The notes below the pieces were generated by a model that saw nothing but the letters and a program-made list of their open reading frames with translations, did not search any database and was not told the DNA's origin. Positions 2,403-7,536 of a DNA stretch of 8,433 nt are shown here, in pieces. Source of the stretch: a virus; the UHGV virus genome UHGV-1374310. One strand, 5' to 3'. The translations under genes and the position numbers were made by a program. Position 1 is the stretch's first letter. Every line of letters starts with the position of its first letter.

Positions 2403-2645
2403 ATGAAAATTCTGTCTACTGTTAAATATAAAATTGCTCTGGCTTCAACTGCGCTTTTTATTTCTGCAAGTTCTTTTGCGGCTGAAGGCGCTACAGGTGG
2501 TACTGATTATGCAGGTCAGGCAATGGATGCTTTGTTGACTCAGGCAAATGATCTCATTGGTAAAGTATGGCCTGTTGTTGTTGCTGTGGTTGGCGCTGGG
2601 CTTGCCATTCGTATTTTCAAAAAATTCTCTTCAAAAGCGGTTTGA
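2403..2645 (+). CDS. gVIII: Major coat protein pVIII precursor (IKe-like)
   Basis: 26-aa signal peptide ending SFA then AEG; mature C-terminus ...[26 protein letters not shown] is close to the IKe coat C-terminus (...[11 protein letters not shown]) as recalled. SD GGAG at 2391-2394. Confidence 0.95.
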
Positions 2646-2655
2646 ATTTCACTCA

Positions 2656-2678
2656 GGGGCACTCGTTGCCCCTTTATT
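2656..2678 (+). terminator. Rho-independent terminator after gVIII
   Basis: Stem GGGGCA (2656-2661) / TGCCCC (2667-2672) with loop CTCGT, followed by TTTATT; same position as the strong terminator after gVIII in Ff phages. Confidence 0.7.
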
Positions 2679-2691
2679 AAAGCGGGTTACT

Positions 2692-3951
2692 ATGAGAAGG
2701 AAAATATTAATTCTTTCCGCTGTCCTCATTTCTCCTTTTTCACATGCTGAGTCATGGGAAAGCATTACTAAATCCACTTATCAAAGTTCTGCCTATGCTG
2801 AAAGTAAGCAAATAACCAATCAGGATGGCTCTAAGATAACGGTTTACTATATTGATGCTGCTATGCAGGCCTCCGCTTGTCAGGGTGCTAAATCCAGTGC
2901 TCAGAGTGTATTTACTCGGATTAAACCAACTTATGAGGGTATCTGGCCTGATTCTGAATTCCGTCTTGTTTTTACTGGCGATTGTACTTACAGCGATTCA
3001 CCAGGGCAGAAGGATAAATATTGGTCTTTAACGGCTTATATTGTTGGTAATATTCAGCGTTCTGTTCCTGATGAAAAACCTACTGACCCGACACCAGAAG
3101 AAATTTGTGAAGCGAAGCCGCCAGAAGAAGGTGTATTTAATAATGTTGATTCATATGATGGTGGTCGCTATATCTACTATAACGGCTGTGAATATGAGGC
3201 TACTGGTGTCATTGTTTGTCAGGGTGATGGTACTGTTTGCGCTGCAACATGGAAGCCTACAGGTGCTGTAGCTGACCCCTCTGATAAACCCTCAACCCCC
3301 CAAAATGGTGGTGGTGAGTCCGGTGGTGGTGAGTCCGGTGGTGGTGAGTCTGGCGGTGGTGAGTCCGGTGGCGGTAGTTCTGGCGGTAGTTCTGGCGGTA
3401 GTTCTGGCGGTGGCTCTAGTGGTTCCAGTCTTTCTAAAGGTGATATTCAGTCTGCGATCGAAGGTGCTTCACCCAAAATAGCCAGCGATATTCATGATAA
3501 ATTAACGGAGAAAGACACTTCATCAGATGATAAAAAAAATGCCGATGAACAAACCAGGAATAATATAAATCGTCTTGACGATTCCATTAACAATCTTACG
3601 CGGGGGGCTGGCCGTTTTGCTGACCCTTCAGGTGGTGATTCTCGTTATGGAAAGGGCGACTCTGAATTAGATGGCGCTTCTACTTTAGCTGATTCTGAAT
3701 TGGGAATTGAAAAGGATTCTCACGGTGCTTTATGGGAAGCATTTTTAAATAAAGGTGCTATGCTGCCTAATTTACCCAATGGTAACGGCTGCTCTGATTT
3801 TATTATTTTTCCCGGAGAGGTTTATCAGATTGATATTGGTTGCGATAAATTACTGACTATTAAAGATGTTCTTTCATGGGTTTTTTATTGCCTTACGTTC
3901 TGGTATGTCTTTACTTCTTTAACTTCATTGCTTCGCAAAGGGGGTGAGTGA
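2692..3951 (+). CDS. gIII: Minor coat / adsorption protein pIII
   Basis: Signal peptide [19 protein letters not shown]; internal motif [29 protein letters not shown] resembles the M13 N1 (TolA-binding) motif YEGCLWNATGVVVCTGDETQCYGTWVPIG; glycine-rich linker (GGGES x4 then SSGG units); C-terminal anchor [21 protein letters not shown]...[14 protein letters not shown] resembles the M13 pIII C-terminus. The track's start at 2548 is an N-terminal over-extension. Confidence 0.9.
3307..3429 (+). repeat. In-frame tandem repeats inside gIII (15-bp GGTGGTGGTGAGTCC units, then 12-bp GGCGGTAGTTCT units) encoding the Gly/Ser/Glu linker
   Basis: Directly visible near-identical tandem units with wobble-position variation. 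Confidence 0.85.
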
Positions 3952-4292
3952 TGCCTTTATTATTAGGTATTCCTGCATTGTTGCGTTTTCTTATTGGTCT
4001 TGTTCCTTTGTTTATTGGCTATGTGGCGGTTTTTTTAGCTCGACTTGCTACCAGAACAGGATTAATCGCCTTTGCATTGGTCGCATTAATTACAACAACT
4101 GTTACGCTTTTAATGCAGTACCTTGCTGAGGTCATGTATAACGGTTTACCTGCTGATTTCTCCCATTTAATGGCGTCTGTATTGCCTGACCATTTTCAGG
4201 CGTGTGTTAACGTTATTATGGTTACTCGTATCAGTGTTTTTGTTTTCGATTTAAAACAAAAATTTCTTGATTATGCAAACAGGGTGATTTAA
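3951..4292 (+). CDS. gVI: Minor coat protein pVI
   Basis: ATG overlaps the gIII stop (TGATG); [17 protein letters not shown]... vs M13 MPVLLGIPLLLRFLGFL...; C-terminal ...VFVFDLKQKF resembles M13 ...IFIFDVKQKI. Confidence 0.9.
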   Translation: MPLLLGIPALLRFLIGLVPLFIGYVAVFLARLATRTGLIAFALVALITTTVTLLMQYLAEVMYNGLPADFSHLMASVLPDHFQACVNVIMVTRISVFVFDLKQKFLDYANRVI

Positions 4293-5387
4293 ATGGCGGT
4301 TTATGTAGTAACAGGCAAATTAGGCTCAGGCAAGACACTTGTTAGTGTTTCCAGAATACAGGAAAGACTTGCTAAGGGTTGTCCTGTTGCCACTAATCTT
4401 GATCTTAAATTGCATAATATGCCTATGGTTGGGCGTTATGCGAAAAAAACGCGCGTTATTCGCATTCCTGACAAGCCTTCATTAAATGATTTACTTGCTA
4501 TTGGTATTGGGAATACATCTTACGATGAATCCCGTAATGGCCTCCTTGTACTTGATGAATGTGGTACTTGGTTTAATTCCCGCTCATGGGGTGATAAAGA
4601 CAGACAACCTGTTATTGACTGGTTTTTACATGCCAGAAAATTAGGCTGGGATATTATATTTTTGATTCAGGATATTTCGATAATGGATAAGCAAGCTCGT
4701 CTGGCGCTTGCTGAGCATGTTGTTTATTGTCGCCGTTCAGATAAATTAAACATTCCTTTTGTTGGCTCCATTATGAATTTGGTTTCAGGGGCGAGATTTT
4801 CTTTACCAAAGGTACACTTTGGCATTGTCAAATATGGTGATAATGTTAATTCAATCACTGTTGATAAATGGATATATACAGGAAAATCTCTTTATTCTGC
4901 TTACAATACCAAACAAGCGTTCACAGATAATTATCCTCATGGCGCATTTTCGCTTTTGCCACCATTTATCACGCACGGTCAATTTTCTGTTCACAGAGGA
5001 TTTAATTATTATATGCGCCTCACTAAAATTTATTTTCGCAAATCGAACCGTCTTATATTAATGCTTTCTTTTTTGGCGCTGGGGCTTGCGTTTGGTTTCT
5101 GGCTCCAGTCTGGAAAGAATGTTGATGAAATCTCAGCTATTAAATCTGCTTATGCTGAACAGGCGAGGGCGGTAACGCCTGATTCGTCCAGTGACTTACC
5201 CCGACTTTCTATTAATTCTTTTTCACAACTTGGCTTTGACGTTTCCGTTACGTTTGTTGATGCAAAAGGTATGAAATATCAGTATTTTGATTTGATTAAA
5301 GATGGTTATTCCGTTGATATTAAAGATGCCTGTCGTGTTGTTATTAGAAAAGGCCGTTATTTACAGACTGTTACCTGTCAGGAGTAA
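4293..5387 (+). CDS. gI: Assembly ATPase pI (Zot-like), Walker A GKLGSGKT
   Basis: Strong similarity to recalled M13 pI throughout (MAVYVVTGKLGSGKTLVSV..., LLVLDECGTWFN, IDWFLHARKLGWDIIFL, AEHVVYCRR). ATG follows the gVI stop directly. Confidence 0.95.
   Translation: MAVYVVTGKLGSGKTLVSVSRIQERLAKGCPVATNLDLKLHNMPMVGRYAKKTRVIRIPDKPSLNDLLAIGIGNTSYDESRNGLLVLDECGTWFNSRSWGDKDRQPVIDWFLHARKLGWDIIFLIQDISIMDKQARLALAEHVVYCRRSDKLNIPFVGSIMNLVSGARFSLPKVHFGIVKYGDNVNSITVDKWIYTGKSLYSAYNTKQAFTDNYPHGAFSLLPPFITHGQFSVHRGFNYYMRLTKIYFRKSNRLILMLSFLALGLAFGFWLQSGKNVDEISAIKSAYAEQARAVTPDSSSDLPRLSINSFSQLGFDVSVTFVDAKGMKYQYFDLIKDGYSVDIKDACRVVIRKGRYLQTVTCQE
5013..5387 (+). CDS. gXI: pXI, in-frame internal initiation product of gI (predicted)
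   Basis: Internal Met at codon 241 of pI (MRLTKIYFRK...), the same codon position as the M13 pXI start (MKLTKIYLKK...), just before the transmembrane segment. Confidence 0.5.
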   Translation: MRLTKIYFRKSNRLILMLSFLALGLAFGFWLQSGKNVDEISAIKSAYAEQARAVTPDSSSDLPRLSINSFSQLGFDVSVTFVDAKGMKYQYFDLIKDGYSVDIKDACRVVIRKGRYLQTVTCQE

Positions 5388-5394
5388 TATTATT

Positions 5395-6660
5395 ATGCGC
5401 TCTGTTATTGTTGCTTTTTTATTTGCCTGTTCATTCTGCGTTTCTGCTGAAACTGTTAATTTAAATAATTCATCTGTTCGCTCATTTGTTCAGCGGTATT
5501 CTTCAAAAACTGGCAAGCCTGTTATTGTTAATCCTGATATTAAAGGAAACGTAACCGTATTTAATGCTGATGTTAATCCAACAAATATTGATGATTTCTT
5601 TAAGTCTGTTCTGAATGCTAACGGTTTTGTCATGCTTTCTGGCAATCCTGCGGTAGTCTCTTTGCCGTCTAAATTACCTTCACAGATGGTTTCGGATTCC
5701 GATGATTCTGATAACCAGTCTTATGATACTTTTCCTTCTGAGCCATCTTACCAGCCAGTACCTGTGGCGCTTACGGTCAGAAATTTTAAGCTGACAAAAG
5801 TTAGATCGTCCGATGTTCAGCAACTGATTAAAATTTATCTTGATTCTAATGGTGGTGGTAATGTCGTGGATTATCCAGGCAATAACTCGCTGATTGTTTC
5901 TGCGCCTGACGAGCTGCTGCCGGTTCTGTCCGATTTTATCAATTCTGTGGATGTTGCCCGCGATCAGGTTCTCATTCAGTCGCTGATGTTTGAAACCAGC
6001 TTGTCTGATGGCGTTGATTTATCGTTTGCGGCAGGTTCTGCATCCGGTCATAAGGTTGCGGGGGGCTTTAATACTTCTGCACTGGGTAGCGCTCTTTCTA
6101 CGGCGGGCGGTTCTTTTGGTATTTTTGATGGTAACGTGTTGGCGCTGTCTCTGCGTGCTGTCCAGAGTAATTCACGCTCTAAGGTGATTTCAACGCCGCG
6201 TATTCTTACTCAGTCTGGTCAGACTGGTTACATTTCCGTAGGTAAGAATGTGCCGTTTATCACCGGAAAGGTAACGGGCGAATCTGCCGGGGTAAATAAT
6301 CCGTTTCAGACTATCGAGCGTCATGATGTTGGCGTTTCTCTCAAGGTAACGCCTGTTGTCATGGGTAACGGGCAACTAGTTCTGACTATCGACACTCGCG
6401 CTGATTCAATCAGCAATGATGATCAGGCATCCGATATTATTACTAATCAGCGCCAGATTCAGACGACAGTCCAGATTAAGGATGGTCAGACGTTGTTATT
6501 GGGGGGGCTTATCGATTCATCGTTCAGCAATGCCGAGCGTTCAGTTCCAGTTATAAGTAAAATTCCTCTTATAGGCTGGATTTTCAGTAGCAAGGCAGAC
6601 AGCAATGAACAGCGTATTATGTATATTTTGCTTACAGCACATATCATTCGTCCACTTTGA
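5395..6660 (+). CDS. gIV: Outer-membrane secretin pIV precursor
   Basis: Signal peptide MRSVIVAFLFACSFCVSA; extensive similarity to recalled M13 pIV (LDFSFAAGS, GGSFGIF, PRILT.SGQ.G.ISVG.NVPFITG.VTGESA.VNNPFQTIER, TNQR.I.TTV...DGQTLLLGGL, SKIPLIG). SD AGGAG at 5380-5384. The track's start at 5302 is an over-extension overlapping gI. Confidence 0.95.
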   Translation: MRSVIVAFLFACSFCVSAETVNLNNSSVRSFVQRYSSKTGKPVIVNPDIKGNVTVFNADVNPTNIDDFFKSVLNANGFVMLSGNPAVVSLPSKLPSQMVSDSDDSDNQSYDTFPSEPSYQPVPVALTVRNFKLTKVRSSDVQQLIKIYLDSNGGGNVVDYPGNNSLIVSAPDELLPVLSDFINSVDVARDQVLIQSLMFETSLSDGVDLSFAAGSASGHKVAGGFNTSALGSALSTAGGSFGIFDGNVLALSLRAVQSNSRSKVISTPRILTQSGQTGYISVGKNVPFITGKVTGESAGVNNPFQTIERHDVGVSLKVTPVVMGNGQLVLTIDTRADSISNDDQASDIITNQRQIQTTVQIKDGQTLLLGGLIDSSFSNAERSVPVISKIPLIGWIFSSKADSNEQRIMYILLTAHIIRPL

Positions 6661-6703
6661 TGGATAGCGGGTAGGTGCGTGAGCCCTGCTCGCTATCCAT
6701 CAA
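6657..6703 (+). terminator. 13-bp-stem hairpin overlapping the gIV stop: terminator and/or packaging-signal-like element
   Basis: TTGATGGATAGCG (6657-6669) and CGCTATCCATCAA (6691-6703) are exact reverse complements with a 21-nt loop. Ff phages have the packaging-signal hairpin, which also acts as a terminator, in this position after gIV. No T-run follows. Confidence 0.5.
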
Positions 6704-6729
6704 ATGGACATTATTGATTGGGGTAACTA

Positions 6730-7038
6730 ATGGATTCTTATGGGATTTTATCTGCTCTGGCAGAACGAACGATTACAGCGGAAGAAGCAAAAACAATGAC
6801 ACTTGCAGCCAGAAGTTCTTCGGCTCAGGTAAATGAAGCATCACTTGCTCTGTTACTGATTGATAATACTCTGGATGCGATCAAAGCAGCTGCCAGTGAA
6901 GGGAAAGGATACACTTTACTTCCTTCTTATGAGATTTCTGTAAAAGCCATTGATTTAGCAGAAGAATTTTTAAGGAAACAATGCGGCTATGTTATTGATA
7001 ACCAGAATGGCGTAAGGACGGTCTATTGGTTTATATGA
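6730..7038 (+). CDS. Hypothetical protein (102 aa), accessory/cargo gene with no recognised family
   Basis: ORF track protein MDSYGILSALAERTITAEEAKTMTLAARSS...; starts about 27 nt after the hairpin; weak SD. Confidence 0.45.
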   Translation: MDSYGILSALAERTITAEEAKTMTLAARSSSAQVNEASLALLLIDNTLDAIKAAASEGKGYTLLPSYEISVKAIDLAEEFLRKQCGYVIDNQNGVRTVYWFI

Positions 7039-7155
7039 TAACCCCGGACAATGACAAAACTTGCTTTTGTTAGTGTCAGGGGTTGGCCAAGCCGAACAAT
7101 TCTGTTTTTTTAGCGTTATTGCTGATTCGGCGCGGCAGCATTACGAGGAGATAAA

Positions 7156-7389
7156 ATGCAATTTTTCACATCCAGCGATACTGTAATGTTATGTGCGAAG
7201 ACCTGCGATCGCTGTGGTCGCCATGCGAAGACGGTGGTAGATGACATTGAGTTCAATGAGTTTCTGTCTGTTAATCACTTAGCTGGATACGGTTCAATTT
7301 TTGGTGACAGTAATCGCTTAAAACTGGATTTATGCCAACATTGCCTGAAAGACGTCCTGGGCCAGTGGATTACGGTCTGTGACCAATGA
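7156..7389 (+). CDS. Hypothetical small zinc-ribbon protein (77 aa; CxxC...CxxC), accessory/cargo gene
   Basis: Strong SD GAGGAG 6 nt before the ATG; Cys pairs CDRC (near the N-terminus) and CQHC (near the C-terminus). Confidence 0.6.
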   Translation: MQFFTSSDTVMLCAKTCDRCGRHAKTVVDDIEFNEFLSVNHLAGYGSIFGDSNRLKLDLCQHCLKDVLGQWITVCDQ

Positions 7390-7427: not shown

Positions 7428-7460
7428 GGTGCGCATAATGTAGGACTCGTTATGTTGAAA
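7428..7460 (+). other. dif-like XerC/XerD recombination site with an extended 11-bp central region (candidate attP half-site 1)
   Basis: GGTGCGCATAA-TGTAGGACTCG-TTATGTTGAAA versus recalled E. coli dif GGTGCGCATAA-TGTATA-TTATGTTAAAT: XerC arm 11/11 plus the next 4 nt identical, XerD arm 9/11. Confidence 0.6.
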
Positions 7461-7494
7461 AGGCCGCTGCGAAAATCGAATCCCGCAGCGGCCT
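7461..7494. terminator. 11-bp-stem hairpin between the two dif-like sites; likely bidirectional terminator for the convergent gene blocks and apex of the putative attP fold
   Basis: AGGCCGCTGCG (7461-7471) and CGCAGCGGCCT (7484-7494) are exact reverse complements with a 12-nt loop; on the minus-strand transcript the stem is followed by UUUUCAACAUAAC. Lies between convergent genes ending at 7389 and 7537. Confidence 0.6.
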
Positions 7495-7521
7495 CTTTAG
7501 CATAACGTCATTGTGCGAACC
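7495..7521 (-). other. Second, inverted dif-like site (candidate attP half-site 2)
   Basis: Reverse complement of 7495-7521 reads GGTTCGCACAA-TGACG-TTATGCTAAAG: XerC-like arm 9/11 and XerD-like arm 9/11 to recalled dif, 5-nt centre; opposite orientation to site 1. Confidence 0.5.
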
Positions 7522-7536
7522 AAAATCTTTTAGATT

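Follow-up and report, generated by a model that had tools for sequence, protein, structure and literature searches.

In the filamentous phages of the Ff group (f1/M13/fd), the packaging signal is known as hairpin [A] of the intergenic region; this imperfect plus-strand hairpin is long and located at the gIV stop codon. The C termini of pVII and pIX, the proteins that are described as reading this signal, are reported to contact the hairpin (PMC10175506, citing Russel & Model 1989), and its ascending limb is reported to carry CGGGT closely followed by GGTG (bioRxiv 10.1101/2023.12.30.573655, citing Russel & Model 1989). Corresponding elements are annotated in the two Lineavirus phages I2-2 and IKe. 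In the GenBank record of I2-2 (X14336), gIV spans positions 987 to 2273 and a "morphogenetic signal" is placed at 2260 to 2330; in that of IKe (X02139/NC_002014), gIV spans positions 4838 to 6151 and is followed by a hairpin at 6141 to 6196, labeled [quoted passage not shown] Both signal annotations were made largely by analogy with Ff. A DNA hairpin also serves as packaging signal in the integrative inovirus φLf-UK of Xanthomonas and its relatives (bioRxiv 10.1101/2023.12.30.573655), where it is located within gII and measures only 20 to 26 nt with a stem of 7 to 8 bp; it functions in both orientations and depends on particular bases in the loop. The UPφ viruses, finally, are described as inoviruses of E. 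coli that integrate at dif and combine IKe/I2-2-like assembly genes with Ypfφ-like replication genes (PMC7307601).

The window, i.e., the whole stretch of 8,433 nucleotides of viral DNA analyzed here, appears from its gene content to fit the UPφ description, as it features IKe/I2-2-like assembly genes, Ypfφ-like gII and gV genes, a dif-like site at 7428 to 7460, two open reading frames (ORFs) between gIV and this site, and ORFs on the reverse strand; the assignment is based on a comparison with the published description. According to Pfam, the genes of the window follow the Ff order:

776-1870: gII (Pfam)
1882-2199: gV (Pfam)
2202-2288, + strand: gVII, encoding a minor coat protein predicted to read the signal (translation; annotated as "tail virion protein G7P-2" in locus L001)
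2288-2383, + strand: candidate gIX of 31 amino acids (by-eye likeness to IKe pIX, ...FGFALFY..G.FKS.S.R...; unannotated in RefSeq)
2403-2645: gVIII (Pfam)
within 2548-3951: gIII (Pfam)
3948-4292: gVI-like gene (Pfam)
4293-5387, + strand: gI, Zot-type assembly ATPase of the IKe-like assembly module (Pfam Zot)
5395-6660, + strand: gIV, secretin (Pfam Secretin, Secretin_N, and N0; RefSeq annotation in L001)
6730-7038, + strand: downstream accessory ORF, probably the "h1" of UPφ (ORF list; UPφ description in PMC7307601)

The pIV protein is 73% identical to that of I2-2, 68.5% to that of IKe, and about 70% to those of the Erwinia PEar phages, with values of 50% for f1 and 47.5% for If1. The window phage differs from I2-2 and IKe in its Ypfφ-like replication module and in its integration at dif. 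An identity with CUS-1/Ypfφ was ruled out, since only gII and gV are Ypfφ-like whereas the assembly genes are IKe/I2-2-like; a megablast search with gII-gV that was aimed at CUS-1 returned UPφ variants only. The entire unit is found as a tandem prophage on the chromosome of E. coli C10, more than 80% of the query is covered in 47 E. coli genomes, and the unit is also present as a 7.9-kb Salmonella plasmid, which is probably the replicative form.

Anatomy and stability of the hairpin

The initial annotation had described an inverted repeat at the end of gIV, with a 13-bp perfect stem and a 21-nt loop. This repeat is real, its arms TTGATGGATAGCG (6657 to 6669) and CGCTATCCATCAA (6691 to 6703) being fully complementary. 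As a description of the hairpin it captures the correct core but underestimates the extent: the uninterrupted perfect stem comprises 14 bp (6656 to 6669 and 6691 to 6704), the presumed loop is mostly paired, and the structure obtained by DNA folding reaches 27 bp in total. The elements referred to below are as follows:

6650-6709, + strand: complete hairpin of 27 bp, with 25 Watson-Crick and two G·T pairs
6657-6703, + strand: 13-bp perfect core and "21-nt loop" of the initial annotation (sequence and repeat finder)
6668-6689, + strand: conserved apical core CGGGTAGGTGCGTGAGCCCTGC, carrying the CGGGT...GGTG motif on its ascending limb (6668 to 6677)

Specifically, the 21-nt segment contains six more pairs, which include both G·T pairs (6670-6690 and 6672-6688), followed by the bulged T6676, two apical G-C pairs, and a GTGA tetraloop (6679 to 6682). 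Below the perfect stem, the second single-base bulge, C6655, is followed by five further pairs formed between GTCCA (6650 to 6654) and TGGAC (6705 to 6709). The repeat finder delimited arms of 20 nt each (6656 to 6675 and 6685 to 6704) with 90% complementarity and a 9-nt spacer. The CGGGT..GGTG motif, CGGGTAGGTG at 6668 to 6677 on the plus strand, occurs only once within the window.

The hairpin overlaps the end of gIV, as had been noted before. The sequence at this end reads ...CGTCCACTT TGA TGGATAGCGGGTAGGTGCGTGAGCCCTGCTCGCTATCCATCAAATGGAC..., the stop codon (6658 to 6660) sits in the 5′ arm, and the last 11 nt of gIV are part of this arm. Since the start codon of h1 follows 20 nt past the hairpin, the latter occupies most of the 69-nt gap between gIV and h1.

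Folded as DNA, the hairpin has a free energy of -24.5 kcal/mol (z = -7.7), which was equaled by none of 200 shuffled sequences; folded as RNA, it reaches -46.9 kcal/mol (z = -9.35). Among 1,687 overlapping 70-nt segments of the plus strand covering the whole 8.4-kb genome (mean, -4.84 kcal/mol; standard deviation, 2.84 kcal/mol), it ranks first. Other strong hairpins of the genome are found at 7441 to 7510 (-21.5 kcal/mol) and at 7036 to 7105 (-16 kcal/mol). A scan with the Rfam covariance models returned nothing at 6650 to 6709, even at E values of up to 1.

Conservation in relatives and covariation of the stem

The I2-2 and IKe signals begin 10 to 13 nt before the end of gIV, and the window hairpin begins at position 6650 with gIV ending at 6660; in all three cases, the stop codon lies in the 5′ arm. 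Folding of the same interval in I2-2 and IKe likewise yielded long imperfect plus-strand hairpins of 21 to 29 bp with loops of 3 to 5 nt and a bulged T before the apical G-C pairs. When the apices were aligned by eye, CGGGTAGGTGCGTGAGCCCTGC of the window corresponded to GGGGTAGGTGCGTTAGCCCTGC of I2-2 and CGGGTAGGTGCGCTAGCCCTGC of IKe, i.e., the apical sequence CGGGTAGGTGCG..AGCCCTGC is common to the window hairpin and the two annotated signals, and the near-identical apex can be written as GGGTAGGTGCG-NN-AGCCCTGCCC. Two G·T pairs of the window correspond to G-C in I2-2 and IKe. The sequence of the lower stem differs, with compensated changes. A short-word blastn comparison with the whole IKe intergenic region matched the window apex to IKe nucleotides 6158 to 6179 at 20 of 22 positions and detected no similarity outside the apex. 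The same type of apex is present in PEar1 and in a 6.8-kb Klebsiella plasmid, and more divergent UPφ-like prophages, such as those of E. coli A20 (L002) and Izhakiella (L004), retain GGGTGCGT(N)AAGCCCC.

The position of the hairpin is more widely conserved than its sequence. The f1 packaging hairpin also begins in the last gIV codons, so that the parallel to Ff drawn in the initial annotation holds with respect to location. Like the window hairpin, it carries CGGGT and then GGTG on the ascending limb, as CGGGTGTGGTG; beyond this short motif, there is no alignable sequence, and its apex is ACGCGCAGCGTGA. Hairpins of the If1 type, found in If1, a plasmid prophage of Klebsiella sp. LY, and prophages of Photorhabdus, Xenorhabdus, and others, are long as well and lie no more than about 20 nt from the gIV stop codon, but they are unrelated in sequence and have a conserved apex of their own, CTCCCTGCGCAGCGGGG. 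Hence, a hairpin at this position is a conserved feature of the entire Ff/If1/IKe clade. In the more distant prophages of Halomonadaceae (pIV identity, 40 to 44%), no long hairpin was found at that place. Viral contigs were also scanned for exact matches to GGTGCGNNAGCCCTGC, but this proved too unspecific, with at least 120 contigs hit, most of them unrelated, and was not used.

For the covariation analysis, 17 distinct IKe-type hairpins were gathered via relatives of pIV, and a structure of 23 pairs was specified by hand. In an unguided MAFFT alignment, 77.9% of the cells were paired, compared with 31 to 51% when the pairing partners were slid; 11 of the 23 pairs had changed on both sides. 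The covariation score was 0.313, whereas slid partners gave values of at most 0.123, and none of 500 shuffles reached the observed score. Given the relatedness of the sequences, such shuffle counts cannot be read as probabilities; the slid controls, together with the number of independent pair types, constitute the more reliable evidence. After refitting of the alignment with the covariance model built from these hairpins (R1), which leans toward the given structure, 80.5% of the cells were paired, the number of compensatory pairs was 12, and the score was 0.365. RNAalifold, applied to the MAFFT alignment, recovered only 11 pairs of the upper stem, because indels misregister the lower stem; for this reason, the structure was set by hand and the sequences were realigned with the covariance model.

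Individual comparisons illustrate how the stem is maintained. Between the window and locus L098, whose pIV proteins are 93% identical, C-G and G-C have taken the place of two A-T pairs, and the stem contains no uncompensated change. The lower stem reads GTCCA/TGGAC in the window and GGCGC/GCGCC in IKe. Note that coding sequence forms the 5′ base of the stem, with Arg-Pro-Leu-stop in the window and Arg/Lys-Ala-Leu-stop in I2-2 and IKe, and that the noncoding 3′ arm follows it. The matches in E. coli genomes are about 100% identical across the hairpin and thus contribute no information on covariation. The loop varies among relatives (GTGA, GTTA, GTAA, GCTA, GCCA, GTCA, and others), in line with a report that the loop of the Ff packaging signal tolerates changes (bioRxiv 10.1101/2023.12.30.573655). 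In each of the 18 hairpins, one to five G·T pairs are present, and the plus strand exceeds the minus strand in stability by 3 to 10 kcal/mol. This strand bias argues against a palindrome acting as duplex and against a minus-strand element; it would be consistent with the property of Ff-type signals to act in a single orientation, in the packaged plus strand.

A search of the window with R1 gave a single match, at 6646 to 6714 on the plus strand, with 70.4 bits and an E value of 5e-18; the score is not independent, since the window is one of the 17 sequences on which R1 was trained, and all that follows from the single match is that the window contains no second copy. The by-eye alignment of the apices and the blastn match to IKe are independent of R1. 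Neither the f1 hairpin nor the If1 hairpin is detected by this model.

Linkage to the assembly module and probable role in packaging

A scan of viral contigs for pII yielded 32 loci in which the association of the hairpin with the phage modules could be followed. Every locus with an IKe-like assembly module and an intact 3′ end of gIV had one R1 match directly after gIV. R1 found no match in 11 contigs in which a matching replication module is joined to unrelated, Ypfφ-like assembly genes (pIV identity, 25 to 29%) and which share only pII (85 to 94%) and pV (84 to 94%) with the window. The hairpin thus accompanies the IKe-like assembly module in inheritance, rather than the replication module. 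It comes as no surprise, and is to be expected, that the signal stays with the assembly genes through exchanges of the replication module.

The candidate readers of the signal belong to the conserved genes as well. The 13 C-terminal residues of pVII, SFGLGAITAGVFR, are identical to those of IKe pVII, and the pIX-like ORF that follows gVII is similar to IKe pIX; both proteins are conserved between the window phage and the phages I2-2 and IKe.

Judged by its position and apex, the window hairpin is clearly the counterpart of the signal annotated in IKe and I2-2 and, as such, an expected and ordinary part of a filamentous phage. The hairpin at 6650 to 6709 is very probably the packaging (morphogenetic) signal of the window phage. 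The initial annotation had leaned toward this reading on account of the position and had named a lack of conservation in relatives as evidence against it; the hairpin proved to be conserved in relatives, and the reading is now supported by the location at the end of gIV, by the homology of the apex to the I2-2 and IKe annotations, and by the covariation of the stem across relatives. From the biology of Ff and IKe, we infer that the hairpin would be required in cis, would be read by pVII and pIX, and would be located at the virion tip. In the proposed course of events, the segment 6650 to 6709 of the plus-strand single-stranded DNA (ssDNA) produced by rolling-circle replication would fold into the 27-bp imperfect hairpin and stay free of the pV coat. 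The C-terminal ends of pVII and pIX may then recognize it at the pI/pXI-pIV export complex; this recognition would start assembly, and the hairpin would end up at the leading tip of the virion. The window element differs from the φLf-UK signal in its greater length, its location after gIV, and its strand bias. Two points count against the packaging reading: two ORFs and the dif-like site lie 3′ of the window hairpin, whereas replication origins (of the minus and plus strands in IKe and I2-2) occupy this place in IKe, I2-2, and Ff, and the genome contains the other strong hairpins named above.

A signal of this kind is known, being annotated in IKe and I2-2; in the UPφ group, it is not pointed out in the accessible literature. 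The UPφ paper (PMC7307601) makes no mention of a packaging signal or a hairpin, and no packaging experiment on the window phage or any UPφ virus was found in the accessible literature. The hairpin offers a precise candidate packaging signal for the dif-integrating UPφ prophages, which are widespread in clinical E. coli, Salmonella, Klebsiella, and Citrobacter. A fragment of about 60 nt could yield phagemids packaged by UPφ or IKe, and the element is useful for annotation and vector design. Direct constraint is most likely to act on the apex, whose sequence is conserved above a freely varying lower stem. Prophage copies that do not carry the hairpin, such as those at loci L106 and L294, can be flagged as probably nonpackageable.

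Other roles considered for the hairpin

The hairpin could also act in the transcript of gIV. An intrinsic terminator can be discarded, as already stated in the initial annotation: the 3′ flank, ATTATTGATTGG, contains no T-run, none is present in any of the relatives, and the site is not among the eight terminator-like sites returned by the terminator scan. This leaves a rho-dependent terminator or pause site, a target of RNase III, or a 3′ stabilizer, any of which would set the read-through into h1 and h2. The terminator following gIV in Ff is rho-dependent. The label in the IKe record names transcription termination beside the morphogenetic signal, the fold of the window hairpin as RNA is very stable (see above), the hairpin lies exactly at a gene boundary, and no sigma-70-like promoter was predicted in the interval up to h1. 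Covariation and strand bias suit an RNA as well as an ssDNA element and cannot separate the two roles, because the plus-sense mRNA forms the same hairpin. Against this stand the conserved, nonpalindromic apex and the CGGGT..GGTG motif shared with f1, which point to an element read by a protein and not to an RNA stem of a generic kind. Moreover, the element tracks the assembly module while the downstream sequence differs: h1 follows in the window, another ORF in L002 and L258, and the replication origins in IKe.

A role in RNA, which fits all of the data, is more plausible as an addition to packaging than as the only function. It is conceivable, though improbable, that the hairpin is used twice, i.e., as packaging signal in ssDNA and as a rho-dependent stop or RNase III site gating h1 and h2 in a gIV-h1-h2 transcript; cargo genes inserted behind the packaging signal would then have co-opted the hairpin as an expression valve. 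Taken by itself, the RNA-level role is an unlikely explanation.

An origin of complementary-strand synthesis, at which host RNA polymerase or primase would prime the conversion of ssDNA to the replicative form, is a highly improbable reading of the packaging-signal candidate. A strong hairpin in plus-strand ssDNA would be suited to this role, no such origin has yet been assigned in the genome of the window phage, and dependence on host enzymes means that the module comparison alone does not exclude it. The role is nevertheless unlikely, since IKe has separate hairpins annotated for it, at 6333 to 6385 and 6410 to 6438, apart from the one at 6141 to 6196. In addition, the window offers other candidates at 7036 to 7105 and 7441 to 7510, and no promoter-like -35/-10 arrangement was detected at the site.

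A palindromic protein site in double-stranded DNA, either an operator of a phage regulator or a Xer/dif-type recombination site, has the least chance of all: although a 14-bp perfect inverted repeat in the gIV-h1 gap and an apical GGTGCG that also starts the XerC arm of dif might suggest it, the imperfections are strand specific (conserved G·T pairs and a bulged T in the 5′ arm, with the minus strand always less stable), the stem bases vary freely while pairing is kept, unlike in an operator, and only these 6 nt are shared with the features of dif (11-nt XerC and XerD arms, GGTGCGCATAA-TGTATA-TTATGTTAAAT), the real dif-like site lying elsewhere, at 7428 to 7460.

The "attP hairpin" at 7448 to 7507 was considered as packaging signal in place of the hairpin after gIV and rejected as a poor fit, since about 72 bp of it occur in about 480 mostly conjugative, nonphage plasmids. 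This hairpin adjoins the dif-like site.

Dif-like site and the adjoining match boundary

The window contains a dif-like sequence 3' of the two accessory ORFs h1 and h2, which lie between this site and the secretin gene gIV, and a strong hairpin overlaps it:

7428-7460, dif-like sequence, consisting of GGTGCGCATAA (7428-7438) and TTATGTTGAAA (7450-7460)
7448-7471 / 7484-7507, arms of the overlapping hairpin (-21.5 kcal/mol)

While the arms of E. coli dif are separated by 6 nt, 11 nt lie between GGTGCGCATAA and TTATGTTGAAA. In most E. coli prophage copies the match to the window ends at position 7523, and approximately 480 plasmids, for the most part conjugative E. coli IncF types, carry 72 bp of window 7451-7523 with an identity of 87 to 94%. 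In pAPEC-O78-ColV, this element is adjoined by a gene of the STM4504/CBY_0614 family, found also among the variable cargo of some UPφ prophages. The region 7428-7523 could mark the edge of a cassette or be a hot spot for Xer-related recombination.

Prophage variants and accessory genes

In one UPφ copy (IMGVR_UViG_2541047720_000001; L106 / L294), the match to the secretin pIV ends at residue 339, beyond which the sequence runs on into the end of h1. Because the match jumps in this way, the copy lacks the 3' end of gIV, the probable packaging-signal hairpin (6650-6709, plus strand), and most of h1; most likely, either the prophage is defective or the sequence was misassembled. The contig IMGVR_UViG_2700989204_000003 (L286) encodes a homologue, 64% identical, of the CxxC ORF h2 (window 7156-7389), although its assembly genes are Ypfφ-like, which suggests an exchange of accessory genes between UPφ phages and those of the Ypfφ type. 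One chromosome, that of E. coli EC5502 (NZ_CP092647.1; H10, H46, and H169), matched at 15 to 17 separate places, suggesting either an unusually long tandem prophage array or many scattered copies.

Further hairpins and a gene IX-like ORF

Two further hairpin structures were found in the window:

7036-7105, 19-bp hairpin, AACCCCGGACAATGACAAAAC...GTTAGTGTCAGGGGTT, directly 3' of the h1 stop codon
836-905, double hairpin in the 5' portion of gII (plus-strand DNA fold, -20.0 kcal/mol)

The former, which is followed at a distance of approximately 17 nt by a T-run (7103-7111) and is also kept in L106, could serve as a terminator or as a minus-strand origin; the latter may have some connection with the plus-strand origin that belongs to the Ypfφ-like replication module. 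A 31-codon ORF at 2288-2383 resembles gene IX of IKe; the RefSeq entry for the identical prophage annotates gene VII but not this ORF.

Inovirus sequences in unlikely hosts

Several genome contigs (L003, L009, L012, and L022) place inovirus sequences within assemblies whose host labels look unlikely. A 'Candidatus Nanosynbacter' MAG contains a 100% identical UPφ pIV, a 'SAR11' assembly an f1/M13 vector-like contig, an 'Actinomadura monticuli' assembly an If1-like contig, and a 'Paenibacillus' assembly an inovirus fragment. The sequences in these contigs probably reflect contamination or binning errors.
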